A stretch of 64,000 nucleotides of DNA. It comes from a virus. Taxonomy: Duplodnaviria; Caudoviricetes. The number at the start of each line of letters is the position of its first letter. Positions within the stretch are counted from its first letter, which is position 1. The notes under the pieces are model-generated. The model made no database searches, was not told the origin of the DNA, and saw nothing but the letters and a program-made list of their open reading frames with translations. The translations under genes were made by a program, and so were the position numbers. The DNA is taken from IMG/VR virus record IMGVR_UViG_3300050159_000048. One strand, 5' to 3'. Positions 4,131 through 60,508 of this stretch are shown here, one piece after another.

Positions 4131-4759
4131 CTGGGTTGGTTTAGGTATGGTCCAAACCAAGTCGTATAGTTACCAGGGAAGCTACCTGGATTATACATAT
4201 ACGGCGTTTTAGCTACGATGTGGAATCGTGCTTGAAAGAGGTCACCCGCAAACACCTCTGTGGTGTTATTTATGAAGTGAGGATCACTGGGGAACACGAT
4301 TAGTGTGCCACGCTGCGGATTAAATCCGAAATGATGTTGAACAAACTCAAGTTTGCCGCCATATACATCAAATTCCTGTTCAAACGGAGTATTTTCTTGA
4401 TAATCTGACAGGAATAGAACTGCTGTCAGATCGCGAGCATTTGTGCGAACCCACTTGCCTCGTAAGTGCTCACTGTTCTCAGCCCGGAAGGTGCCAGAAC
4501 TTCCCGCAGGAAACCACTCAAATTCAACACTCTCCGTGCCACGGTACAGCATCTGATAGTGCCCTTGGATTTCGGGCAGTAACATAAGCAGCCGCTCATA
4601 AATCAAACCTTCAGCAGTTTCCGACCGTTTGGTCGTCTTCACATACTTCCCGTCCTTGTTTTGATCAGGGACATTGAAATCCACAATATCAACAATATCT
4701 TCACACATCAGAGGAGAAATGAACTCCTCAACAACATAAAACGGAGACTTATTCATCAT
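4127..4759 (-). CDS. 2OG-Fe(II) oxygenase-fold protein with degenerate metal ligands
   Basis: RDLTAVLFLSDY, GGKLEF, P.RGTLIVFPS fold motifs; HxD...H...R positions appear substituted. Confidence 0.7.
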   Translation of the reverse strand: MMNKSPFYVVEEFISPLMCEDIVDIVDFNVPDQNKDGKYVKTTKRSETAEGLIYERLLMLLPEIQGHYQMLYRGTESVEFEWFPAGSSGTFRAENSEHLRGKWVRTNARDLTAVLFLSDYQENTPFEQEFDVYGGKLEFVQHHFGFNPQRGTLIVFPSDPHFINNTTEVFAGDLFQARFHIVAKTPYMYNPGSFPGNYTTWFGPYLNQPS

Positions 4760-5291: not shown

Positions 5292-5956
5292 TACACTCCA
5301 TACGTTTTGTGATACGTATTTATGCGTCGAAGAAGTGGCTCAATGTATGGCTCAATCGGTTGCTTGAATATCAACGGTACAGCTCCTCGTTCGCTGCTCA
5401 TGATGATCACAATTTGATCAATTTGAATGCCATACCGCTCCAGATACATCAATGCATACGCTGTTGTCTGTAGGAAATAGTCACCAATCATCGATTGCTT
5501 CTTATCGGTTGTTGATGTTTTGAAGTCGATGATTGCGGGCACTCCGTCGTATTCGCCAATACAATCAACACGCCCAGCAACACGCATTACATCACTCCAC
5601 AGCGCGGATTCTTGAGTGTGAATGTTATTGATCCGCTTTAGATGGACCTTCAGCATGTTGAAGTCTGGAATGTGGGCCGGTAACATATCGCGAGTAGGAT
5701 CTACCTCATTGTTGAGGTACCGCTCCACCATCAAGTGAACTGCTGACCCTCGGTCGGCTGCTCGCTTCATTTCAGCGTCTGCTCGATCTGCGCCCATACT
5801 GTCACGCCACTCTCGAAGCCACGGTTTGTCACCAGCTCCCAAAATGGTGGTAATTGACGGATACTTGTTGCCTTCTGGCGTCAAATAAAAACGCCCGTTA
5901 GGACCCTCTTCTGTGTTGAGGTTAACGGGCGTGATGTTGTTGAGATGCGTGAACAT
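5291..5956 (-). CDS. PD-(D/E)XK (Cas4-like) exonuclease
   Basis: YPSITTIL, RGSAVH, AGRVDC, IIDFKTS, QTTAY. Confidence 0.88.
   Translation of the reverse strand: MFTHLNNITPVNLNTEEGPNGRFYLTPEGNKYPSITTILGAGDKPWLREWRDSMGADRADAEMKRAADRGSAVHLMVERYLNNEVDPTRDMLPAHIPDFNMLKVHLKRINNIHTQESALWSDVMRVAGRVDCIGEYDGVPAIIDFKTSTTDKKQSMIGDYFLQTTAYALMYLERYGIQIDQIVIIMSSERGAVPLIFKQPIEPYIEPLLRRINTYHKTYGV
5317..5324 (-). promoter_or_regulatory. T4-like late promoter CATAAATA
   Basis: 26 nt upstream of peptidase start. Confidence 0.55.
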
Positions 5957-7430: not shown

Positions 7431-7438
7431 TATTTATG
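7431..7438 (-). promoter_or_regulatory. Late promoter CATAAATA
   Basis: 26 nt upstream of ATG 7405. Confidence 0.6.
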
Positions 7439-25158: not shown

Positions 25159-26265
25159 TCACACCGGTTCAAATCCAGTGCGGCCCTCTTTCAATGTGTT
25201 AGGGATCACGGGTTGTCCATACATCCAGTGTCTGGTTGTATTGACGTGGCCTTTGCGAACGTATTTACCGACCATTTGTTTGAACTGACTGAAGTGGAAA
25301 GGCTCGTCAACACGAATGACATAGCCTTCAACCTCGCCTCTGGCGGCTTCGCGTTGCTGCTTCAGGGTGCTATATGATTGCTCAATCTTGGCTCGATCAT
25401 ACTCGCCCCAGTAAATCACCGGGCATGGAGTGACGCCAAGCAGTTCATACCACTGCAGCGTGTCTTGCCAGGTCAGGATGTGATTTGTGTCATCCCACAT
25501 GGCAAAACCATACGCATATGTTTCGAGGTCAACATATGTAATCGAGTGCTTTGCGTACATATTTTCGACGCTGAGCCTCCAACCTTCTGGAATGTCGTGT
25601 TGGAACTGAGAGGCGAACGCACGGATCCAATCACGAGACGGGTGTCCACCAGAAGTGACGGAGCGAGCATGCATGTAATCGTTGTAGATTGACGTGTTTT
25701 CACCGTCCAATTTCTCCATCACGACAACCTTTCGGCCTTCGAAGATGGAAACGTCTGGCATCATACGATCGTCATCGTGCATGCCCGGAGACCACGGCAA
25801 ATGGAAGGTTCGGGGGTATTTGACGTACTTGACAAAATCCCCAATCACGCCACCTTCAGTCAGAACCTTTTGGACGCTCTCGTCGTTAAACAGTTCGCCC
25901 CGCAGCCTGCGATTATCGTCAAGGATTACATTACCCCACTTATCGTATACGGTGTCGGTGTACATATGGGGAGGGAGGATTGGTTTGGTGATGCCGGCAT
26001 ATTCCCGAATTTGCTCAACAGTGATCTGAGTTCGTTCACACGCAAGGTGATGCTCGGAACATACGGATGCACCGTTGTTCAAGTGATATCCCTGACAATC
26101 ACCAAACAACCTTCGCTCAATTATATGATGGGCATCAACCGCTGGTGCCCCACACACAACGCAGCGGTAAGCGTCACGTTGGAATGTATGCTCACGAAAC
26201 TGATCACGTGTCAGTCGTTGATTGGTGGTGCAGCACGAGCTTGCACCAGCTGATAAATTGCTCAT
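25159..26265 (-). CDS. HNH-domain/RNA ligase fusion protein
   Basis: N-term CVVC..DAHHI..NGASVC..HH; C-term KYPRTFHL, EKLDGEN, EGYVIR, KYVR. Confidence 0.88.
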   Translation of the reverse strand: MSNLSAGASSCCTTNQRLTRDQFREHTFQRDAYRCVVCGAPAVDAHHIIERRLFGDCQGYHLNNGASVCSEHHLACERTQITVEQIREYAGITKPILPPHMYTDTVYDKWGNVILDDNRRLRGELFNDESVQKVLTEGGVIGDFVKYVKYPRTFHLPWSPGMHDDDRMMPDVSIFEGRKVVVMEKLDGENTSIYNDYMHARSVTSGGHPSRDWIRAFASQFQHDIPEGWRLSVENMYAKHSITYVDLETYAYGFAMWDDTNHILTWQDTLQWYELLGVTPCPVIYWGEYDRAKIEQSYSTLKQQREAARGEVEGYVIRVDEPFHFSQFKQMVGKYVRKGHVNTTRHWMYGQPVIPNTLKEGRTGFEPV

Positions 26266-26947
26266 CTGTCATATCTCGTTTCATTACGTTGATCATTTTA
26301 TGCACCCACTGAACATTGTCAACAGTATACCCTTTTGTTGAATCTATTCTATCTAGTGAGGCAGTGCATTTCTTATTCCAAGCTGTTCCAAATTCAATAT
26401 CCACCCCGCTTAACGCACATCGTTTTTGTTGGGCTACAAAAATATCCCAACCTTCCTGGGGGGTTAGTTCAAACGGAATATTTCGCTTCGCCGCACCACA
26501 TTTCCACCCACCCCATCGTGATCCGTATATTTCTTCATACCCTGTAAACGAGGCTTGGCGGCCATTGTTTTGTCGAACTTGATGGAAGGCAGCACATCCT
26601 GGGACTCCACAAGTTTTTCTACCGCCGTTGATAATCTTTCTTGTGACATCTTGGACAGGATTCCCACATTCACAACGACCAATGATATTCCATTCATGAT
26701 ACTTGTCATTGTAAATGAAGGCCTCAACAGTAATGGAATTGAACTGTTGACCAACCAAGGATTGGTCTGGAAGTGTCCGCGGGGGATACTTTCGTCTGAG
26801 CGGTAATCCTTGTTCACGTAAGTATCGTTTGATTGGTGCTTCTCCGACCTTAAGTTGTTTGCATATTTGTGTGACCGGAACGAGAGTGTTGTACAGCTCG
26901 TTGATTAGCTGCTGTTCTTGTTCTGTGAACTGACGTAGTGGTTGCAT
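26204..26947 (-). mobile_element. Free-standing HNH homing endonuclease
   Basis: CALSG..ASLDRIDSTKGYTVDNVQWVHKMIN; N-terminal HTH-like region; late promoter at 26975-26982. Confidence 0.88.
26295..26322 (-). promoter_or_regulatory. Sigma70-like promoter embedded in HNH 3' end
   Basis: GTTGACA-16-TAAAAT, about 30 nt upstream of ligase ATG 26265. Confidence 0.6.
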
Positions 26948-26974
26948 GTGGTGTTCCGTTCAAGACGTTGAAGG

Positions 26975-26982
26975 TATTTATG
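26975..26982 (-). promoter_or_regulatory. Late promoter CATAAATA for HNH endonuclease
   Basis: 28 nt upstream of ATG 26947. Confidence 0.6.
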
Positions 26983-27027
26983 CAACTCCCTTCTGAACTA
27001 CCAATCATTTGCGTCACTTAAATTCTC

Positions 27028-27153
27028 TTATTTGAACAGCCGACGTTCAATAATGTGGTGAGCATCAACAGCCGCAGCGCCACAAACAACGCATTTGTGG
27101 TGATCGCGGTTGAATACGCTTTCGCGGAAGACGTCTCTGGATAGTAGTATCAT
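27028..27153 (-). pseudogene. Orphaned 5' stub (41 aa) of the HNH-RNA ligase gene
   Basis: MILLSRDVFRESVFNRDHHKCVVCGAAAVDAHHIIERRLFK*; 28/37 residues identical to N-terminal region of 25159-26265. Confidence 0.9.
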
Positions 27154-27178
27154 GGTAGTTTTCTGGATTTTGTTAAGG

Positions 27179-27207
27179 ATGATACGGTATCACCCAAGGT
27201 CAAGCAA
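27179..27207 (-). promoter_or_regulatory. Sigma70-like promoter of the ligase stub
   Basis: TTGCTT-17-TATCAT. Confidence 0.5.
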
Positions 27208-28421: not shown

Positions 28422-28828
28422 ACGAAATCTTGCTCCATTATTGGGTTCCTGAGACAGGCCATCATGCTGATCCGCGCCTCTTCGTACCGCGGATCGTGAT
28501 GAAGGATATTCTCCCGCATCTGCGGCGTTAAGTCAAGGAAGTAACGATCAACGGACAGGCCGCACAGACCGCACCCCAGCAGGTGCGCTACAGATAAGAA
28601 ACGAAATTGTTGCCGTCCAACCTGTACGATATGGCGAACATTCCTAACCACCGGTTGTTTTTCAGCCATTAGCTTTGATGCAAACTGAGCGGCAGCTAAT
28701 TCTGCTGCTCTTGCGGTTGGTCCAATGTATACGTATTGGTTAGATGGATCGCCAAGATCCACCTCACCCATCAATAGATCAACATATTGAGTTGTTTGTT
28801 CATGATTCTTTTTCACGTAATGTGTCAT
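28418..28828 (-). CDS. Hypothetical protein
   Basis: ATGA-coupled to ligase C fragment. Confidence 0.6.
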   Translation of the reverse strand: MTHYVKKNHEQTTQYVDLLMGEVDLGDPSNQYVYIGPTARAAELAAAQFASKLMAEKQPVVRNVRHIVQVGRQQFRFLSVAHLLGCGLCGLSVDRYFLDLTPQMRENILHHDPRYEEARISMMACLRNPIMEQDFV

Positions 28829-29625
28829 AGCATAGCCTTCAGTTCGTCTTGAGAAATTACAGTAACGCCCAAATCGCGCGCCTTCACTGCTTTCCCAGAT
28901 GTGCTGTTGGGCTCTGCTGTGACCAGATACGTGGTCTTGCTGCTAACTCCGGTGCTCATCACACCACCCACATCAACGATTTGCGCTTCTAGTTCTTTGG
29001 AGCGGAACCCAGTGAACACGAACGACTTACCAGACAGATGGCCTTGTTTCTTCGCAACGAATGCGGCGATCGACACATACTTATCAATCGCGCTAAGGAA
29101 CTTCAAGAAAGTGGGGTAGCCAGCAACAATCTTCTTGGCCGTCTTGACGTCGAAGCCTTCCACAGCAACGATTGCATTCAGATCGGCACACTTTGCCATA
29201 TCACCAGCAAATGCTTCTTCCAGTTTCTTCATCTTTCGCACCCCAACGCCGCGTCCGAACGCGGCGCACGATCCCATCAGCACGTGCATCGGGATGTTGG
29301 TGAAACGCTCGCGCATGTTGGTGAAAATCTTCTTACCAATTGCCATACTACCGACCAAGCTGCCGATGTCTTCCAGCGTCAGAGGAATGATCTTTTCAGG
29401 AGTATCGAACCCCATGTCGAACATTTGGCGCAGATTGCCTTCACCGAGGTGAGGGATGTCAACGGATGAGAAGAAGTCAACCAGACGTTCAAACCGAGCA
29501 GTTTCGTTGTTTGCAGCATCAACGGCTACTGCATCGACCCCTGTCTCATTCCAATGCCAATCACCTAGGTTATCCAGTTGAGCGTTAAACCATGTTTCGT
29601 ATGCTTGTTTGTATTCGGGGGTCAT
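28825..29625 (-). CDS. ligA: NAD-dependent DNA ligase, C-terminal fragment (HhH + BRCT)
   Basis: WNETGVD, GVGVRKMKK HhH, BRCT LSGKSFVFTGF..GVSSKTTYLV..K..KARDLGV; GGAG SD. Confidence 0.9.
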   Translation of the reverse strand: MTPEYKQAYETWFNAQLDNLGDWHWNETGVDAVAVDAANNETARFERLVDFFSSVDIPHLGEGNLRQMFDMGFDTPEKIIPLTLEDIGSLVGSMAIGKKIFTNMRERFTNIPMHVLMGSCAAFGRGVGVRKMKKLEEAFAGDMAKCADLNAIVAVEGFDVKTAKKIVAGYPTFLKFLSAIDKYVSIAAFVAKKQGHLSGKSFVFTGFRSKELEAQIVDVGGVMSTGVSSKTTYLVTAEPNSTSGKAVKARDLGVTVISQDELKAML

Positions 29626-29634
29626 GGGGTTCTC

Positions 29635-29642
29635 CATAAATA
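29635..29642 (+). promoter_or_regulatory. Late promoter CATAAATA for endonuclease
   Basis: Overlaps the antisense GGAG SD of ligase C fragment. Confidence 0.55.
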
Positions 29643-29667
29643 AACGGAATGACATCACTTACCGTGT

Positions 29668-29696
29668 AGTATACGGTTGAATTTCGAAAAGATCAA
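29668..29696 (-). promoter_or_regulatory. Sigma70-like promoter for ligase C fragment
   Basis: GTTGATC-17-TATACT. Confidence 0.7.
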
Positions 29697-29698
29697 CA

Positions 29699-30442
29699 AT
29701 GAAACGACTAACATTTGACCAATTTGTCCAAAAGAGTAGGCTCATACATGGGGACAAATATCAGTACACGACCTATCATAAGAATTCTGTTAAGACAGAA
29801 ATAATTTGCCCCAACCACGGATCATTTTGGCAACGACCACTGGATCACATGCGTAGCGATGGTTGTCCAGTGTGTAAGTTTGAACACCTTGCTTCACTAA
29901 AGCGTGGAAATGTTGCATCGTTTATTAAGCGTGCTATTAATGTGCACGGAGACGTATACGATTATTCGCAAGTAATATATGTGAACGCTATTACGCCTGT
30001 TGAAATAATTTGTCCCAACCACGGATCATTTTGGCAAACTCCTGATAAGCACACTTCAGGCCAAACTCGCTGTCCCAAATGTTCACAACAATCGTCGCAT
30101 GGAGAGGCTGAGATTGAAAGGTGGTTAGACCAGCACGGTATTCAATACGAACGAGAGAAGCGGTTCGATGATTTGTGTGGTAGTACCCCAAATTCACGGC
30201 TGCGGTATGACTTCTTCTTACCAGCTTACAACATGCTGGTAGAGTTTGATGGCGAACAGCACTTTACCCCGGTTCGTACAAAGGGTAAGCTATCAACCGA
30301 GCAGGCTGTCGTCAAACATCAACGTACAGTTGAAAACGACGGTAAGAAAACAGCGTATGCGGAGAAGCATGGGTATCAGCTTCTCCGCATACGATATGAC
30401 CAGGACATCAATTCTCACCTTGCAGCGCGGGTGCGGTTATAG
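29699..30442 (+). mobile_element. Free-standing homing endonuclease (DUF723-like repeats + PD-(D/E)XK Vsr/DUF559-like nuclease), antisense within ligA
   Basis: IHGDKYQY, repeated ICPNHGSFWQ, RYDFFLP..LVEFDGEQH. Confidence 0.85.
29798..30037 (+). repeat. 36-bp direct repeat (29798-29833 and 30002-30037) encoding the endonuclease Zn-binding repeats
   Basis: gaaataatttg(c/t)cccaaccacggatcattttggcaa, one mismatch. Confidence 0.9.
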
Positions 30443-30722
30443 TGGGCGTGATTTCGTTTGAAGTGTTCGACCTTTCGGCATGTATGTGCTTGATGTTAAT
30501 GAGGGCAATTGGTATGTTGCCATACACACTACCTGTACCGATCCATTCATCCTTCTCATACAACTCCATTTGCATTTCTGGTGTCGGTCGACAACCATCC
30601 ATCCTAACAGTAACCTTTGCGTCACCCAAGTGTGGTTTTGCTTCCCGAAACCACACTTTAATTTGACAAGCAGGGCTGGTGAGAGGGGGACATTGCCAAT
30701 ACCAGAGCGTATAGTGTCTTTT

Positions 30723-31916
30723 TCATTTCATATTCTCCAAGGGCATGGGTTCAATGCACCGCAAAATTTGCGGAATGACATCGCCCGCGCGGGTAATTTC
30801 AATCTTGGCTCCAGGACCGATGCCGTTGTCCTTGATGAACTTAGCATTAAAGCCAGTCAGGTTGGAAATGGTGACGCCAACCAGATCAACCGGATGAATC
30901 TGAACGCGCGGCTTGTAGTAGCCATCCTTCGACACGTTCCACTCAACTTGTCGCACGGTAGCAACAGCAAGGTTTGATGAGTCAGCAACCTTGAACTTGA
31001 CCGCGTATTCTGGATTCAGCTCATCGGTTGCCAGGCGAGCGCGGGTTGCTGCTGCGTCGATGTCAATCACAATACCGTCAATTTCGTATTCCGTAACAGC
31101 CCGACGGTCGTTCAGCAGCTTGGTCAGGCGATCGTCGTTCCAATAGTCGGCTTGACCAATTGAGTATTCAGCAACCTTGAAGCCCCACTTTGCCAATTGT
31201 TCAAGTTGGTCAACCTTGGCCATCTTGCTGCCAACAATTTCGTACGCGACCGTATCAATCGCAGTGTACACTTCGGGATGGTTCTCCGACGAATTCATCA
31301 AGCCGGAGACCATGTTGCGGGGATTTTTGTAGATTCGGCCACCACGCGCAAACTTGCCGGTATTGATTCGACTAAATGATGCAGGGGAGATGATGTTTTC
31401 CGCACGAATCGTCACCGTGTCGCCAGTCAAGTTTGTGATTTGCTTGGGGACATTGTGAATTTTAGAAACGTGCCGTGTGATATCTGCACCCTCTTCGCCG
31501 TCGCCGCGTGAATATGCGATTTGCAGCTTGCCGTCAGTGTCGTACACAAGCATTGCGCTTGCACCGTCCAACTTATCGCTGATCACAATCAGATCGGTTG
31601 TCAGACCATGTTTGGCAATCCACCTGACGTAATCGCCTTGGTACACTTGATTCAGTGAGCCCATCTTGTATGGCAGCTTGATTTTTCCACCACGAACTGC
31701 ACTACCAATGCCAGTGAAGTAGGCATCAGCAGGACTGGTCTTCTGAGCGTACTGCTTCAGAGCGTCGTACTGGTTATCTTCCATCAAAGGCTCTTGATCA
31801 TTGAAGAACGCGTCATCCGCTGCTTTGAGCAACTCAATAACCGTGGCAATTTCAACGTCTTCGTATGAGCCGAAAACGAACATTTCTTCAACAAGGCGCT
31901 TATGATCAGTAGACAT
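30723..31916 (-). CDS. ligA: NAD-dependent DNA ligase, N-terminal fragment (adenylation + OB)
   Basis: DKLDG (adenylated Lys), YSRGDG..G.DIT, EIDGIV, AVKFK, TRAGDVIP; ends right after OB fold. Confidence 0.93.
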   Translation of the reverse strand: MSTDHKRLVEEMFVFGSYEDVEIATVIELLKAADDAFFNDQEPLMEDNQYDALKQYAQKTSPADAYFTGIGSAVRGGKIKLPYKMGSLNQVYQGDYVRWIAKHGLTTDLIVISDKLDGASAMLVYDTDGKLQIAYSRGDGEEGADITRHVSKIHNVPKQITNLTGDTVTIRAENIISPASFSRINTGKFARGGRIYKNPRNMVSGLMNSSENHPEVYTAIDTVAYEIVGSKMAKVDQLEQLAKWGFKVAEYSIGQADYWNDDRLTKLLNDRRAVTEYEIDGIVIDIDAAATRARLATDELNPEYAVKFKVADSSNLAVATVRQVEWNVSKDGYYKPRVQIHPVDLVGVTISNLTGFNAKFIKDNGIGPGAKIEITRAGDVIPQILRCIEPMPLENMK

Positions 31917-31932: not shown

Positions 31933-31964
31933 AAGAGGACGGATGCTGAATTATCCGTCCTCTT
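31933..31964 (-). terminator. Hairpin after thyA overlapping the ligA promoter
   Basis: aagaggacggat...atccgtcctctt. Confidence 0.6.
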
Positions 31965-31978
31965 CGTGGATATGTCAA
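31950..31978 (-). promoter_or_regulatory. Sigma70-like promoter for ligA
   Basis: GTTGACA-17-GATAAT. Confidence 0.7.
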
Positions 31979-42796: not shown

Positions 42797-43462
42797 TTAT
42801 GCAAGACGCCAGCCTTTTGCCGTTCGTTGAGTGCCTTTAATGAGGGCTGTAATCATAGGACGAGGGACGTTGTGCGTTGTATGAAAGTCCTGTCTCGTTC
42901 CCACAAAAGTCTCACCTAATATATGTTGGAAGGTCAGCACTTCTGGATTGAAGTTAGGGTTGGCTGTCCCTACGCCGGAGCGAGATCGGCGAATGCGTTT
43001 CATATCTTCCGAACGTGTTTGTCGCAGAATAGCTGCCAATGCTTCACCGTGTCGCTCTTCGTATGATTTTCCGGTATACCGGTCTTTTGCACCCTGGGAT
43101 AAGCGTTGACGTACTTCTGAGGTATGTGTCTTACCCCACATGCCGTTGGAAGTTCCATGCAGGATTGGTCCTCTATCACCACCCAGTGTCATATTGTATC
43201 CAATGTATCGCTTGTGCGTTCCATTTTCCAATATGAATCTCTCCTCCGCCCACCAAGCGTCTTGTTCTGTGTATGCTACGAATAACACTTCCGATGTCCA
43301 GTTGCGTGCTCCATGTTTTCGTATGGCTCGGTGAAAAGGTGTTTTTGACCCACCATTCGCCGCGCTGATATGTTGGGAGAAACGCTCTTGCATGGTGTGT
43401 TTAGTGTAACCAACATATGACTTGCCGTTGACTGTATTTGTGTGTTTGTAGATAGTGAACAT
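42797..43462 (-). mobile_element. GIY-YIG homing endonuclease (Seg-like) with NUMOD-type repeats
   Basis: TIYKHTN..NGKSYVGYT, ERF..H, E..FI..GYNMT.GG, MWGKTHT.E. Confidence 0.92.
43428..43456 (+). promoter_or_regulatory. Sigma70-like promoter embedded antisense in GIY-YIG 5' end
   Basis: GTTGACT-17-GATAGT, 41 nt upstream of ATG 43498. Confidence 0.5.
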
Positions 43463-43479
43463 TCAATGTCTCCGTTATC

Positions 43480-43487
43480 TATTTATG
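43480..43487 (-). promoter_or_regulatory. Late promoter CATAAATA for GIY-YIG
   Basis: Followed by GGAG SD and ATG 43462. Confidence 0.65.
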
Positions 43488-49950: not shown

Positions 49951-50025
49951 CTCGGTGTAGCGCAGTCTGGTTAGCGCATCTGCTTTGGGAGCAGAGGGTC
50001 GTAGGTTCGAATCCTACTACCGAGA
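49951..50025 (+). tRNA. tRNA-Pro(UGG)
   Basis: Cloverleaf, tctgc-tt TGG ga-gcaga; CCA not encoded. Confidence 0.95.
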
Positions 50026-50043
50026 CATAAATAGAAGTACAAT

Positions 50044-50119
50044 GCGGACATAGTACAATTGGTAGTACATCACCTTGCCAAGGTGAAGGTTGCGGGTTCG
50101 AGACCCGCTGTCCGCTCCA
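50044..50119 (+). tRNA. tRNA-Gly(GCC)
   Basis: tcacc-tt GCC aa-ggtga, CCA encoded. Confidence 0.95.
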
Positions 50120-50120
50120 A

Positions 50121-50558
50121 ATGATAACGTGTGTAGTTTGCAAACAAATAAAACCCGATGAAGATTTTAATTGGCGAAATAAAAGCCAAGGCCTCAGAAA
50201 GAACAATTGCAAACCATGTGATCGTGAAATGAAACGGCGGTTTTATGTAAACCATCGTGAGCAGGTGATTGCTGAGAATGTTGACCGAAATCTAAGGAAG
50301 AAGCAAACCTTCCAATCTTGGAAACAATCTCTGTCATGTTGCATGTGTGGTGAAACAGATGAAGCATGTTTAGACTTTCACCACAAGGACCCAACTCAGA
50401 AAGAATTCTTGATCTCTAAGTTGGTAACCAATAGCTCTTTTGAAAAGTTGAAAGCAGAATTGTCTAAGTGTGTTTGTGTGTGCGCAAACTGCCATCGCAA
50501 AATACATAAATACAATCTGTCAGTTCCTGATAATGCGGGTGTAGTGTTTAACGGTTAG
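50121..50558 (+). mobile_element. HNH endonuclease inserted in tRNA cluster
   Basis: CVVC..CKPC N-terminus; CCMCG..CLDFHH..KCVCVCANCH. Confidence 0.85.
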
Positions 50559-50612
50559 CACGAAAGTCTTCCAAACTTTAGGTGAGGAGTTCGAATCTCC
50601 CCACCCGCTCCA
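50535..50612 (+). tRNA. tRNA-Gly(UCC)
   Basis: aaagt-ct TCC aa-acttt, CCA. Confidence 0.93.
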
Positions 50613-50628
50613 AAAGAAGAAAAACAAT

Positions 50629-50702
50629 TGCGGGTGAGTGTGATGGTAGCACGCGAGTCTCATAAGCTTGAGGGCCGGTTCGATTCCGAGACCACGCAAC
50701 CA
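50629..50702 (+). tRNA. tRNA-Met/Ile2(CAU), irregular acceptor and T stems
   Basis: cgagt-ct CAT aa-gcttg; bulges in acceptor and T stem. Confidence 0.7.
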
Positions 50703-50812
50703 AACAACAAATAGTACATATTGACTTCGTAGAGTTGGGATAGCCGAACTCTACACTAACTGACTTTAATAAAATGGGTTCTTAGTCAGTGAGCCGTTGG
50801 AAAGAGGAAATC

Positions 50813-51685
50813 ATGATGTATGGCAATAAGCTAGCCTTTGCTGTGAAGCATAATGGCAAAATTCTTCGCGAACTCAATCGCGACACAGTGTACGTTCCGT
50901 TCGGGGCTGAATACACAATCCTAATCAAAAATCTGAACAATGTCCGTGCTCTCGTAAACATTACGATTGACGGCACAGACGCTGTCGAAGGCGGCCTTGT
51001 GGTTGACGCTAACCGGGAGGTTGAGCTGAAGCGATTCGTCAAGAATGGCAACATGACACAAGGTAATAGCTTCAAGTTCATCGAACGTACCGCTGGCGTA
51101 GAACAACACCGCGGCATTGGTATTGAAGACGGACTGATCCGTGTCGAATATCAATTTGAAGATGCTGTGGCTTATCGGCCAACACCAGTATGGCGCGAGC
51201 GTTGGGTCAAAGACGGATACTGGGACTACGAAACAGACCGGCGTCTGTTGGGATCAACCAACACTTCATATTCCGGCAGTGGTGGTGTGAGCGGTAGTCT
51301 GGGTGATGGTCTCGCAAGCATGGCGCTTAAGAGCTACACTGCTCCAACCAGCCGCACTCTACGGTCTCACTCTGTCACTGCGAGTGCCTCAATTGCTAAC
51401 ACCACCCAATCAATCAATGTGGTAGCACAGAATGCTTCATTAAATGATGTTGGCGTTACCGTCCCAGGTAGCCTAAATGATCAAAAGTTTAGCCAAGCAT
51501 CCTGGTTCCCTGTAGAAGCCACGAAGCACGTGCTTGTAGTTAAGCTCCTGGGAGAAACCGCAAGCGGCCCGGTTGTTCAAGCCGTCACCGTAAACGTCAA
51601 GCCAAAGTGTGTGACGTGTGGTAAGCAAAACAAAGCCACGTCTAAATTCTGCACGGATTGTGGAACATCACTAACAATCGTCTAA
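50813..51685 (+). CDS. Conserved phage hypothetical protein with C-terminal zinc ribbon
   Basis: C-terminal CVTCG...FCTDCGT; GAGG SD. Confidence 0.8.
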   Translation: MMYGNKLAFAVKHNGKILRELNRDTVYVPFGAEYTILIKNLNNVRALVNITIDGTDAVEGGLVVDANREVELKRFVKNGNMTQGNSFKFIERTAGVEQHRGIGIEDGLIRVEYQFEDAVAYRPTPVWRERWVKDGYWDYETDRRLLGSTNTSYSGSGGVSGSLGDGLASMALKSYTAPTSRTLRSHSVTASASIANTTQSINVVAQNASLNDVGVTVPGSLNDQKFSQASWFPVEATKHVLVVKLLGETASGPVVQAVTVNVKPKCVTCGKQNKATSKFCTDCGTSLTIV

Positions 51686-51761
51686 GCAGACGACTAATAT
51701 GTGGGGTAAAATACCCCACATCCCCCAGTTATGACCCCACATCGGGCCCGTCGCCCCAGTG

Positions 51762-51790
51762 TTGACATTGTTGAATAACCGCCGTATAAT
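51762..51790 (+). promoter_or_regulatory. Consensus sigma70 promoter
   Basis: TTGACA-17-TATAAT 9 nt upstream of suppressor tRNA. Confidence 0.9.
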
Positions 51791-51799
51791 AGCCGCCAT

Positions 51800-51875
51800 G
51801 CGCTCGTAGCTCAGTGGTTAGAGCGGCGGTCTCTAAAACCGTTTGTCGCGGGTTCGAATCCCGCCGAGCGCACCA
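51800..51875 (+). tRNA. Amber suppressor tRNA (CUA)
   Basis: gcggt-ct CTA aa-accgt; complete cloverleaf, A73, CCA. Confidence 0.92.
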
Positions 51876-51904: not shown

Positions 51905-51912
51905 CATAAATA
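51905..51912 (+). promoter_or_regulatory. Late promoter CATAAATA inside a hairpin
   Basis: gggtatt-cgcata-aataccc upstream of vWA gene. Confidence 0.55.
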
Positions 51913-57705: not shown

Positions 57706-57713
57706 CATAAATA
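57706..57713 (+). promoter_or_regulatory. Late promoter CATAAATA
   Basis: Heads operon 57741-60335. Confidence 0.65.
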
Positions 57714-60370: not shown

Positions 60371-60508
60371 CTCATCATTGATTGATAACCGCTTAGGAAA
60401 TCAATCGCAAAACGAACCCCAACTGCGAAAAGTTGACCCCGTTGACTTCTAGCATAAATAGAAAGACAGTTGACGTAATCGTTCAACAACATTCAAGGAT
60501 TTAATCAA

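Follow-up and report, generated by a model that had tools for sequence, protein, structure and literature searches.

An NAD-dependent DNA ligase encoded in two pieces around an antisense homing endonuclease gene in an uncultivated giant phage

Introduction

How does a DNA ligase gene come to lie in two pieces on either side of an endonuclease gene, and can the two pieces still make one enzyme? The question is raised by a locus within a stretch of 64,000 nucleotides (64 kb), here called the window, from an uncultivated giant phage from leaf litter. In this locus, the NAD-dependent DNA ligase is encoded by two genes, LigN and LigC, with an antisense endonuclease gene between them. Two-piece phage ligases (T5) and endonuclease-split genes (NrdA of Aeh1) are already known. 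The split ligase with its homing endonuclease gene (HEG) is real and well supported, and its function we infer; the reading that we prefer, with a probability of roughly three in four, is that of a genes-in-pieces ligase, in which a HEG cassette splits LigA at a hinge by homing with co-conversion and the halves reassemble.

Results and Discussion

Organisation of the locus

The original prediction held that LigA is split in two, with its HhH-BRCT half restarting downstream. This observation is confirmed in its coordinates and sequences (Table 1), and the Pfam domains agree with it. The break is located after the OB fold, in the hinge ahead of a zinc-finger-like module. LigN ends in ..GDVIPQILRCIEPMPLENMK, followed by a TGA codon; beyond the residues EPM it has a tail of eight residues, ending in PLENMK and the stop, and its frame meets no further stop over the 104 codons after the TGA. 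The orphan ORF in the gap has no match in Pfam or among the PHROG families and no homologue among the related loci, the gap ORFs of different loci being mutually unrelated. The LigC reading frame spans 28825–29658, with the best start at the ATG of 29623–29625, 6 nt past a GGAG, and the two ligase halves are in different reading frames. A megablast search of the locus against cultured phages gave no match; the ligases of the nearest cultured relatives (XacN1, Xoo-sp13, Phosso and Atu_ph07) are all unsplit, with an identity of at most 50%.

Table 1. Positions of genes and candidate control elements of the split ligase locus in the window.
Feature	Position	Strand	Remarks
LigN promoter candidate, sigma-70-like	31950-31978	minus	TTGACA-17-GATAAT, 11/12 matches, consensus scan
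LigN	30723-31916	minus	397 aa; domain Ia, adenylation domain with KLDG, OB fold
Upstream (coding) copy	30744-30782	minus	codons D-V-I-P-Q-I-L-R-C-I-E-P-M
Orphan ORF in gap	30408-30656	minus	82 aa, LigN's frame
HEG, free-standing, Vsr-like	29699-30442	plus	247 aa, antisense to ligase
LigC promoter candidate, sigma-70-like	29668-29696	minus	TTGATC-17-TATACT, consensus scan
CATAAATA, promoter-like motif facing HEG	29635-29642	plus	inside downstream copy; 56 nt upstream of HEG ATG
Downstream remodelled copy	29623-29656	minus	LigC 5' UTR, GGAG, ATG
GGAG, Shine-Dalgarno of LigC	29632-29635	minus	inside downstream copy
LigC, C-terminal ligase subunit	28825-29625	minus	266 aa; HhH repeats, BRCT

The duplicated segment

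The 12-mer GATGTCATTCCG, noticed earlier at two sites, is found exactly there (30771–30782 and 29645–29656, both on the minus strand) and nowhere else in the 64 kb; with one mismatch allowed, shuffled sequences gave 0.31 matches. It is part of a duplicate, about 40 nt long, of the GDVIP...EPM codons. The first copy of the 12-mer has gaacccatg 18 nt further on, and the second is followed by gaaccccatg, overlapping the last base of tttatttatggag. The upstream copy is homologous to a contiguous GDVIPFILGVVEPM in the unsplit relative P0026, which reads ..GDVIPFILGVVEPMPINPTDYNDWF.. without interruption, with EPMP directly adjoining a Y..WF head. This contiguous reading makes the Met of EPM the natural origin of the LigC start, in agreement with the earlier proposal that it is the new initiation codon.

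In three related split loci (L033, L034 and L095), the duplicated element is 91–96% identical over 22–24 nt while the ligase proteins are merely 42–65% identical, which rules out chance. The downstream copy reads DVIPFIY in the window, in a frame other than that of LigC; in L095 it reads GDVIPFIY, in frame with LigC, and in L034 GDVIPFIYEAL-stop. That it is a remodelled duplicate, as was suggested at the outset, can thus still be read from the related loci, and it supplies the GGAG. No duplicated element is present beside LigC in L093 and L044.

Promoters and the motif facing the endonuclease gene

The candidate LigN promoter is located 34 nt upstream of the LigN ATG. The scan also returned the elements of GTTGATC-17-TATACT, put forward before as the LigC promoter; its -35 element is immediately adjacent to the start codon of the HEG, and sigma-70-like candidates occupy the same position in L033, L094 and L095. 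HEG start codon and -35 element together fall inside a 21-nt stretch that is identical between the window and L095.

On the opposite strand, the promoter-like motif anticipated inside the downstream copy, CATAAATA, is both over-represented and conserved ahead of the endonuclease genes. The window contains 11 copies, where 1.33 would be expected (about eightfold enrichment), most of them lying 17–87 nt upstream of ORF or tRNA starts, and the motif is found 45–75 nt upstream of the HEG start in four of the five HEG-bearing loci (the window, L034, L095 and L096). The fifth has TATAAATA instead, the T4-type late promoter motif, which is absent from the window. Among the sequencing runs found to contain the locus, none is of an RNA type. 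Promoter use, the start sites and the absence of splicing are taken here as the sequence suggests them.

The homing endonuclease

The plus-strand ORF between the halves, recognised from the start as an antisense endonuclease gene, matches DUF723 and a treble-clef zinc finger in Pfam, and PHROG 559 (E 5e-50); its match to Pfam DUF559 is weak (18.7 bits, below the 20.6-bit cut-off). It consists of two DUF723/treble-clef zinc-finger DNA-binding modules, followed by a putative carboxy-terminal Vsr-like PD-(D/E)xK nuclease domain. Invariant across seven homologues are the Cys/His zinc ligands and residues D171, E182, D184, H188, D214 and K217. A structure model (pLDDT 83.8) has Vsr (PDB entries 1CW0 and 1VSR) and I-Bth0305I (PDB entry 3R3P) as its top Foldseek matches (probability 1.00, E 0.02–0.06); a PDB sequence search with the HEG profile gave no match. 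With its zinc ligands and catalytic residues invariant, and with Vsr and I-Bth0305I as the closest structures to its modelled fold, the product is likely to be an active nuclease, the cleavage activity and target of which we infer.

Recurrence and mobility of the junction

At least seven further metagenomic loci share this junction, four with an antisense HEG (L034, L093, L095 and L096) and three without (L033, L094 and L044). The HEG-less gaps measure about 60–310 nt, and in L033 a 7-codon HEG stub is kept beside the shared promoter. Stand-alone C halves form 26 clusters (251–278 residues, without an OB domain); all 16 clusters inspected begin at the conserved head. In every split locus whose contig extends far enough, an intact LigN adjoins LigC. 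From these sequences, the layout is widespread and apparently mobile, not a single event. For annotation, the stand-alone "BRCT proteins" of about 265 residues and the 400-residue "truncated ligases" beside them in large phages are best treated as one enzyme.

The relatives have diverged by 35–58% in protein, and their synonymous sites are saturated.

In a tree of the ligase backbone, from which the junction columns had been removed, the split ligases are polyphyletic, appearing in at least three places. Forcing the split rows into one clade costs 188 lnL units (AU p of about 1e-67, for a split group defined after a first tree was seen). When a tree is made from the junction only, the window and L033 group with other split and head-bearing forms. 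The polyphyly of the split ligases implies that the junction moved between ligase lineages, and by its distribution the junction looks like a portable cassette, the direction of its transfer being a presumed one. Alternatively, the backbones could have become mosaic through homologous recombination of the usual kind on either side of a split of long standing, not through HEG-driven co-conversion.

The split might be older than, and independent of, this endonuclease, with HEGs and accessory genes merely occupying the gap and the duplication stemming from some other event. We regard this as unlikely. The three HEG-less split loci would fit it, but the stub in L033 makes the absence of the HEG there secondary. 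Its other supports are the unrelated accessory ORFs found in the gap across lineages, the break of the T5 ligase at the same hinge with only promoters in the gap, and the heterogeneity of the HEGs at the site, which comprise two-module and three-module forms that are 34–65% identical; this heterogeneity, together with the lack of a duplicated element in L093 and L044, indicates that some occupants may be later arrivals. Against it stand features that tie junction and nuclease gene together: the duplicated element itself bears the HEG-facing motif in four of five HEG-bearing loci, the HEG start abuts the LigC -35 element within the stretch shared with L095, and the junction is common to polyphyletic backbones, which requires a mobile agent.

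LigN and LigC as ligase subunits

LigN contains the adenylation domain (PF01653, E 2e-34) and the OB domain (PF03120, E 8e-17) of NAD-dependent ligases. Residues K115-L-D-G, E173, D280-G281, K307 and K309 are invariant over 23 homologues, and a domain-Ia-like D..F.N....L..D.QYD.L can be read from the sequence, the hallmarks of these enzymes (the KxDG lysine, motifs III, IV and V, and domain Ia) being present in LigN. LigC contains a BRCT domain (PF00533, E 1e-9) and has 43 invariant columns, including Y19, W22, F23, G31 and W35, over 16 stand-alone homologues that are 42–67% identical to the window copy. Its amino-terminus forms a Y..WF..QL helix, followed by a Trp-rich, cysteine-free module that replaces the zinc finger; the four cysteines are missing at this position in unsplit relatives too. 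The single-polypeptide order of OB fold, four-Cys zinc finger, HhH and BRCT is thus not found here, with the OB fold on LigN and the BRCT domain on LigC, and the pair would be an atypical two-chain, cysteine-free variant working like LigA.

Prediction of the LigN-LigC complex gave scores of 0.78, 0.78 and 0.77 over three runs, against 0.00 for the best of three controls; among solved complexes 58 of 80 attain the mark applied, and among mismatched pairs 2 of 110, a calibration that applies only roughly to the unpaired alignments used, and the score may partly be memory of single-chain LigA structures. The predicted interface is formed by residues 324–365 of the LigN OB fold and 390–396 of its tail with head residues 15–60 of LigC. 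Since both halves are conserved and a complex is predicted, LigN and LigC presumably reassemble non-covalently into a two-subunit ligase. The short docking elements indicated, the Y..WF..QL helix on one side and the OB surface with the carboxy-terminal tail on the other, may be of use in split-ligase engineering.

It is quite improbable that LigN alone matters as a ligase, with LigC dispensable, decaying or in a separate role, even if some viral NAD-dependent ligases, such as that of entomopoxvirus, do without carboxy-terminal domains. LigC is intact, with its many invariant columns; its promoter candidate, Shine-Dalgarno sequence and start are all conserved; it stands beside an intact LigN wherever the contig of a split locus reaches; and it is predicted to dock on LigN. 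The Haloferax ligase also argues for a contribution of LigC: without its C half, Haloferax LigN still self-adenylates, and the authors assign the ZnF/HhH/BRCT part to post-adenylation steps (PMC1684257). No other ligase gene was found within the 183-kb record, which is only about 52% complete, so that a second ligase may be encoded outside it; the phage could also rely on the LigA of its host.

A continuous ligase, restored across a group I or other intron or by bypassing of the insert, is very improbable. Endonuclease genes are often intron-borne, and the repeated 12-mer is superficially like take-off and landing sites, but the HEG is antisense, the ligase halves are in different frames, and the stop, promoter candidate, Shine-Dalgarno sequence and ATG are conserved, as are, at the protein level, the extra residues of tail and head. 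The HEG-less gaps are also short, and no family reached significance when the gap of the window and that of L033, which has no HEG, were compared with Rfam, the matches (ylbH leader, E 0.35; an lncRNA model, E 0.4) being at the level of chance.

Three specific candidates were rejected. For a group I intron with an intron-encoded endonuclease, there is no Rfam match with E <0.3 and the ORF is antisense. In the case of an intein, intein blocks are absent, LigN continues for only eight residues past EPM, and unsplit ligases can be aligned with the head of LigC. Translational bypass between the 12-mers would have to span 1.1 kb, over the same conserved stop and restart signals.

An assembly artefact or chimera, a concern with any sequence of metagenomic origin, is practically excluded by a locus structure that is 100% identical across separate JGI assemblies and present in at least 13 runs, by contigs of four further runs that bridge both junctions with alternative joints absent, and by homologous layouts from unrelated samples.

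A proposed mechanism

In the genes-in-pieces reading, the Vsr-like HEG would have settled, in antisense orientation, at the hinge that separates the OB fold from the zinc-finger-like/HhH/BRCT part, its insertion flanked by the direct duplication of the GDVIP...EPM codons. The upstream copy still codes for the end of LigN, continuing into a short new tail and stop, while the downstream copy would have become a control element for both directions: for the ligase, it would act as LigC 5' UTR with GGAG and ATG behind the sigma-70-like promoter, and on the opposite strand, its CATAAATA would be aimed at the HEG. The Y..WF..QL helix and Trp-rich module of LigC would dock on the OB fold and carboxy-terminal tail of LigN, and the pair would act on nicked DNA like single-chain LigA. 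The portable unit would comprise tail and stop, HEG, divergent promoters, duplicate and LigC head; homing with co-conversion of the flanks is the most likely cause by which unsplit ligase genes would be turned into split ones. In some lineages, the HEG would later have been deleted while the ligase remained in two genes, a state like that of T5 ligA/ligB.

More tentatively, and at somewhat less than even odds, the HEG may carry a self-contained gene-splitting kit, with which it homes into the essential ligase of diverse phages and leaves a working two-subunit enzyme. The kit would consist of a stop codon, two promoters placed back to back, the head by which the downstream subunit docks, and a second copy of part of the target. 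On one strand this copy would provide the ribosome-binding site and the start codon, on the other the nuclease promoter. Its direct repeats could permit precise reversal, and loss of the nuclease would make the split permanent, as in T5.

The loci form a natural series of how a selfish endonuclease may interrupt an essential gene and the host survive, from unsplit head-bearing ligases through split ligases with an intact nuclease gene and with a stub to those that lack the nuclease altogether. The two-subunit ligase of T5-like phages, long annotated but unexplained, could plausibly have originated along such a series.

Comparison with known systems

The T5 genes ligA and ligB encode subunits A and B of an NAD-dependent DNA ligase (Wang et al. 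2005, as cited in PMC1684257 and PMC3632103). T5 and the window share the hinge at which the ligase is broken, between the OB fold and the zinc-finger position: T5 LigA extends for eight residues beyond the OB-fold motif G-V-I-P, and LigB begins just before the zinc finger. In both, the second ligase gene has its own promoter (a candidate in the window). Unlike in the window, the T5 gap of about 200 nt has no HEG and no recognisable duplication, the four-Cys zinc finger is kept and the Y..WF..QL head is absent. Since the T5 proteins match the window ligase too weakly to rank among the phage matches listed, the T5 split is, by sequence comparison, most likely an independent event, and common descent is unlikely given the different junction features. 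A biochemical reconstitution of the T5 enzyme was not found in the literature searched.

The Aeh1-like layout of the original prediction is present in the window: two co-oriented ORFs cover one protein, a HEG lies between the two, and neither an intron nor an intein was found. Aeh1 NrdA is likewise an essential replication-related gene with a free-standing HEG. The interrupted gene there is nrdA, not a ligase gene, and mobE of Aeh1 is an HNH enzyme co-oriented with nrdA, whereas the window HEG is Vsr-like and antisense. The window also differs in that its target duplication would give the restart signals and double as HEG promoter region, and in that its cassette occurs on many diverged backbones. 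Both polypeptides of the HEG-split Aeh1 NrdA (nrdA-a/mobE/nrdA-b) reportedly retain function (Friedrich et al. 2007, PNAS, PMC1851037; cited in PMC10448857).

In their study of fractured genes, Dassa et al. 2009 (PMC2677866) describe one SbcD-like gene that a Vsr-like HEG splits without any intein and that has gained additional residues at each of the new ends; they also report TATAAATA-type elements upstream of the HEGs. A split intein is what defines a fractured gene, and the ligase in that study contained one; the window ligase has none. The fractured-gene HEGs, I-Bth0305I and the window HEG probably belong to one nuclease fold family, but hairpins, and no duplicated target segment as in the window, were described upstream of the fractured-gene HEGs.

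Organization of the split ligase

Two minus-strand open reading frames within 28825-31916 jointly cover one NAD-dependent DNA ligase. The amino-terminal gene, LigN, contains the adenylation and OB domains and ends in ..GDVIPQILRCIEPMPLENMK, followed by TGA. The best start of the carboxy-terminal gene, LigC, is an ATG with GGAG six nucleotides before it, the same start point as in all homologous stand-alone C-terminal halves. A homing endonuclease gene (HEG) lies antisense between the two. The LigN frame stays open beyond its TGA, where gene callers place an orphan ORF of 64 or 82 residues; no homologue of this ORF was found in any library searched or related locus.

Features of the ligase locus and of other regions of the window
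Feature	Position	Strand	Remarks
LigN	30723-31916	minus	397 aa; PF01653 adenylation domain, E 2e-34; PF03120 OB domain, E 8e-17
Open LigN frame past TGA	30408-30722		104 codons; orphan ORF
HEG	29699-30442	plus	247 aa; DUF723, treble-clef zinc finger, weak DUF559; PHROG 559, E 5e-50
LigC ORF	28825-29658	minus	BRCT domain, E 1e-9
LigC start	29623-29625	minus	ATG
12-mer copies	30771-30782, 29645-29656
Sigma-70-like promoter candidate	upstream of LigN		TTGACA-17-GATAAT, 11/12 matches
Sigma-70-like promoter candidate	upstream of LigC		TTGATC-17-TATACT; 29668-29696, minus strand
CATAAATA	29635-29642	plus	opposite LigC, within duplicate
CATAAATA	4267-4274, 5317-5324, 7431-7438, 26975-26982, 43480-43487	minus
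CATAAATA	50026-50033, 50505-50512, 51905-51912, 57706-57713, 60453-60460	plus
247-aa ORF	26204-26947 (region 26104-27207)		no Pfam match; CATAAATA shortly upstream
GIY-YIG gene	42797-43462 (region 42797-43487)		CATAAATA shortly upstream
tRNA cluster	49951-51875		Pro-TGG, Gly-GCC, Gly-TCC, CTA anticodon (ARAGORN: tRNA-Pyl)

Alignment with unsplit orthologues, from the cultured phages XacN1, Xoo-sp13 and Phosso and from many IMG/VR contigs, shows the break to lie in the linker that follows the G-D-V-I-P motif of the OB-fold, directly before the zinc-finger substitute, a module rich in Trp and without the four cysteines throughout this phage group. The original prediction of a ligase in two genes with an antisense endonuclease gene between them is borne out by the ORFs and their Pfam domains, and its placing of the break just after the OB-fold by this alignment. 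Unsplit relatives have two linker types: a short one, as in the metagenomic locus L006 (..VIPFILETVKPVAPQMPDD..), and a longer one with an inserted Y..WF..QL helix, here called the head (L039, L040, L043, L048-L050, P0022 and P0026). In unsplit P0026 the sequence GDVIPFILGVVEPMPINPTDYNDWF.. is uninterrupted; the split forms are P0026-type sequences severed after EPM(P), with LigN tails that resemble each other across loci (EPMPLENMK, EPMPVENM, EPMPEENM and EPMPVKNMIE).

The locus is 100% identical in JGI leaf-litter samples assembled separately, and at least half of its sampled words are present in 13 runs. In four further runs, contigs span the LigC/duplicate/HEG and HEG/gap/LigN junctions, and no alternative joints were seen in these bridging contigs. 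The identical separate assemblies and the bridging contigs argue against an assembly artefact. An intron is very unlikely, given the lack of Rfam intron matches in the gap of the window and in that of a HEG-less relative, the antisense orientation of the HEG and the different frames of the two halves. Split inteins are ruled out, the new termini being too short.

The duplicated segment and its control signals

Ahead of LigC, the GDVIP...EPM codons are present a second time in degenerate form, here called the duplicate. Across the 64-kb window there are exactly two copies of the 12-mer GATGTCATTCCG, one followed by gaacccatg and the other by gaaccccatg; shuffled sequences gave 0.31 matches with one mismatch allowed. 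In L095, the duplicate is in frame with LigC and still reads GDVIPFIYVGVLM, in L034 it reads GDVIPFIYEAL-stop, in L096 ..IPAIYGVVM and in the window DVIPFIYGEP, in another frame. Over its core of 22-24 nt, identity among the window, L033, L034 and L095 is 91-96%, against only 42-65% for their ligase proteins. This is a genuine duplication, and an old one. The coding copy of L033 (..GGTGTGGAGGAACCAATG) already has GGAGG seven nucleotides ahead of the Met codon, so that a duplicate of this stretch is a ready-made ribosome-binding site and start. Its putative use in both directions, for the LigC start signals and for CATAAATA on the opposite strand, would explain why the duplicate is conserved as DNA.

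Sigma-70-like promoter candidates are located upstream of both LigN and LigC; L033, L094 and L095 contain equivalent or better ones in the same position relative to the duplicate. The motif CATAAATA occurs 11 times in the window against 1.33 expected, an approximately 8-fold excess (none of 100 shuffles reached 11). Most copies are 17-87 nt upstream of the start of an ORF or tRNA on the same strand, among them the starts of a GIY-YIG and a zinc-protease-like gene. CATAAATA precedes the HEG start by 45-75 nt in the window, L034, L095 and L096; in L093, TATAAATA takes this place. HEG-less L033 keeps CATAAATA and HEG-less L094 has a decayed form, CACAAATA. The T4-type late motif TATAAATA is absent from the 64-kb window. 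CATAAATA is likely a phage-specific promoter motif resembling this T4 late motif. The two 12-mer sites, each followed by gaaccc(c)atg, the LigC promoter candidate and the promoter-like antisense motif facing the nuclease had all been predicted originally; each is present in the window, and the last two recur in other loci. In L093, a near-palindrome that includes TATAAATA (ctatctatttatagatag as read along the ligase strand) is located at about 1355-1436, upstream of a three-module HEG, and recalls the late-promoter regulatory hairpins described for Aeh1 mobE and fractured-gene HEGs.

The endonuclease

The endonuclease family has two or three zinc-finger modules, the Cys/His ligands of which are invariant in seven homologues; in the carboxy-terminal domain, D171, E182, D184, H188, D214 and K217 are likewise invariant. 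The AlphaFold model of the window protein (pLDDT 83.8) has Vsr (1CW0, 1VSR) and I-Bth0305I (3R3P) as its closest solved folds, with a probability of 1.00 and E-values of only 0.02-0.06. Going by this modelled fold, the family is probably the Vsr-like family of Dassa et al. (2009), which those authors found in fractured genes and, in addition, once in an intein-less split SbcD-like gene (PMC2677866).

Elsewhere in the genome, a paralogue with 37-41% identity (G000:C1:5905-6636; L005 1492-2277) lies antisense between cREC_REC and CCA-adding/poly(A)-polymerase-family genes, and in L034 a second DUF723-type HEG adjoins the CCA-adding enzyme (PolyA_pol) gene; members of the family may thus have a second site for homing in this neighbourhood. 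The HEG of the window stops at TAG, with a TGA two codons on. The CTA-anticodon tRNA of the window could be an amber suppressor, a hint of TAG read-through or recoding in the phage.

Related loci and apparent mobility of the junction

A search with LigC yielded 26 clusters (proteins of 251-278 aa without an OB domain, 38-67% identity), and all 16 stand-alone C-terminal halves inspected begin at the head, Y..WF..QL...G.W.W.

Related split ligase loci
Locus	HEG	Gap between the halves
L033	none	152 nt; Thg1-ThyA-LigN-LigC-DHFR synteny, as in the window
L034	antisense, 246 aa	also 302-aa and 86-aa ORFs
L093	antisense, 326 aa	nothing else; LigN cut by contig end
L094	none	313 nt, with 40-aa ORF
L095	antisense, 245 aa	also 170-aa ORF
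L096	antisense, 324 aa	also 75-aa and 114-aa ORFs
L044	none	about 60 nt

Beside the shared promoter, L033 retains a stub, GTG-R-R-L-T-F-D-stop, homologous to the opening codons of the window HEG (M-K-R-L-T-F-D); therefore, the HEG was deleted there and the split retained. The gap gathers unrelated small ORFs (L034 4005-4913 and 5722-5982; L095 3681-4193; L096 4400-4982; L094 4702-4824), several of which resemble lipoproteins or membrane proteins (signal-peptide-like ...LLVGC, ...LTGC). In L034 and L096, the Shine-Dalgarno sequence and ATG of the duplicate are now used by a gap ORF. Just downstream of DHFR in L033 (8105-10258), a 717-aa RNA ligase has a LAGLIDADG match, possibly an intein or fused HEG.

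On the maximum-likelihood tree built from concatenated ligases, the split forms fall in separate places. Unsplit short-linker ligases (L006, L035 and L038) belong to a well-supported clade that also contains the window and L033; L034, L094, L095 and L096 form a separate clade, and L044 stands apart. Leaving out the junction columns gives the same outcome; with that reduced alignment, a tree constrained to a single clade of split forms is worse by 188 log-likelihood units (AU p ~1e-67, for a group named only after the first tree had been seen). In a tree of the junction only, which is short and weakly supported, the window and L033 are placed with other split or head-bearing forms and not with their backbone relatives. 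The N-terminal half of the window ligase is closest to L006 (73.5%) and the C-terminal half to L035 (70%), and identity to L006 falls at the junction. From these comparisons, the junction (LigN tail and stop, HEG, promoters, duplicate and head) appears to have moved between ligase lineages. The simplest reading of this spread is that the flanks were co-converted during homing, or that some equivalent recombination took place around the insert, and it fits the report that nuclease genes mark exchange boundaries between phages (PMC10448857).

Comparison with known split genes

In phage T5, the break between ligA and ligB is at the same hinge, and the 200-nt gap between them contains two promoters. 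T5 lacks both an HEG and the duplication, and its zinc finger is still a true one. According to citations in PMC1684257 and PMC3632103, mentions of the divided T5 enzyme go back to 2005. Precedents for genes left in pieces by HEGs come from Aeh1 NrdA/mobE and the fractured-gene loci. New are a Vsr-like occupant in antisense orientation, the redeployment of a duplicated target segment as a putative two-way control element, the evidence for portability of the split junction itself and the graded series from intact HEG via stub to none.

Predicted interaction of the two halves

All catalytic and DNA-binding motifs are kept in both halves across the split lineages, and the 183-kb record, about 52% complete, yielded no other ligase gene. 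For Haloferax, a fragment equivalent to LigN self-adenylates, and its authors conclude that the carboxy-terminal part acts after adenylation (PMC1684257). Complex prediction for LigN with LigC scored 0.78, 0.78 and 0.77, the best of three controls scoring 0.00; 58 of 80 solved complexes reached the mark applied, as did 2 of 110 mismatched pairs, counts that apply only roughly here, our own alignments having been used. The prediction supports binding of LigN to LigC, although single-chain LigA structures learned by the predictor may contribute to the score. Confident predicted contacts are between residues 324-334 and 357-365 of the OB domain and 390-396 of the tail, and LigC residues 15-60, which make up the Y..WF..QL helix and the Trp-rich module.
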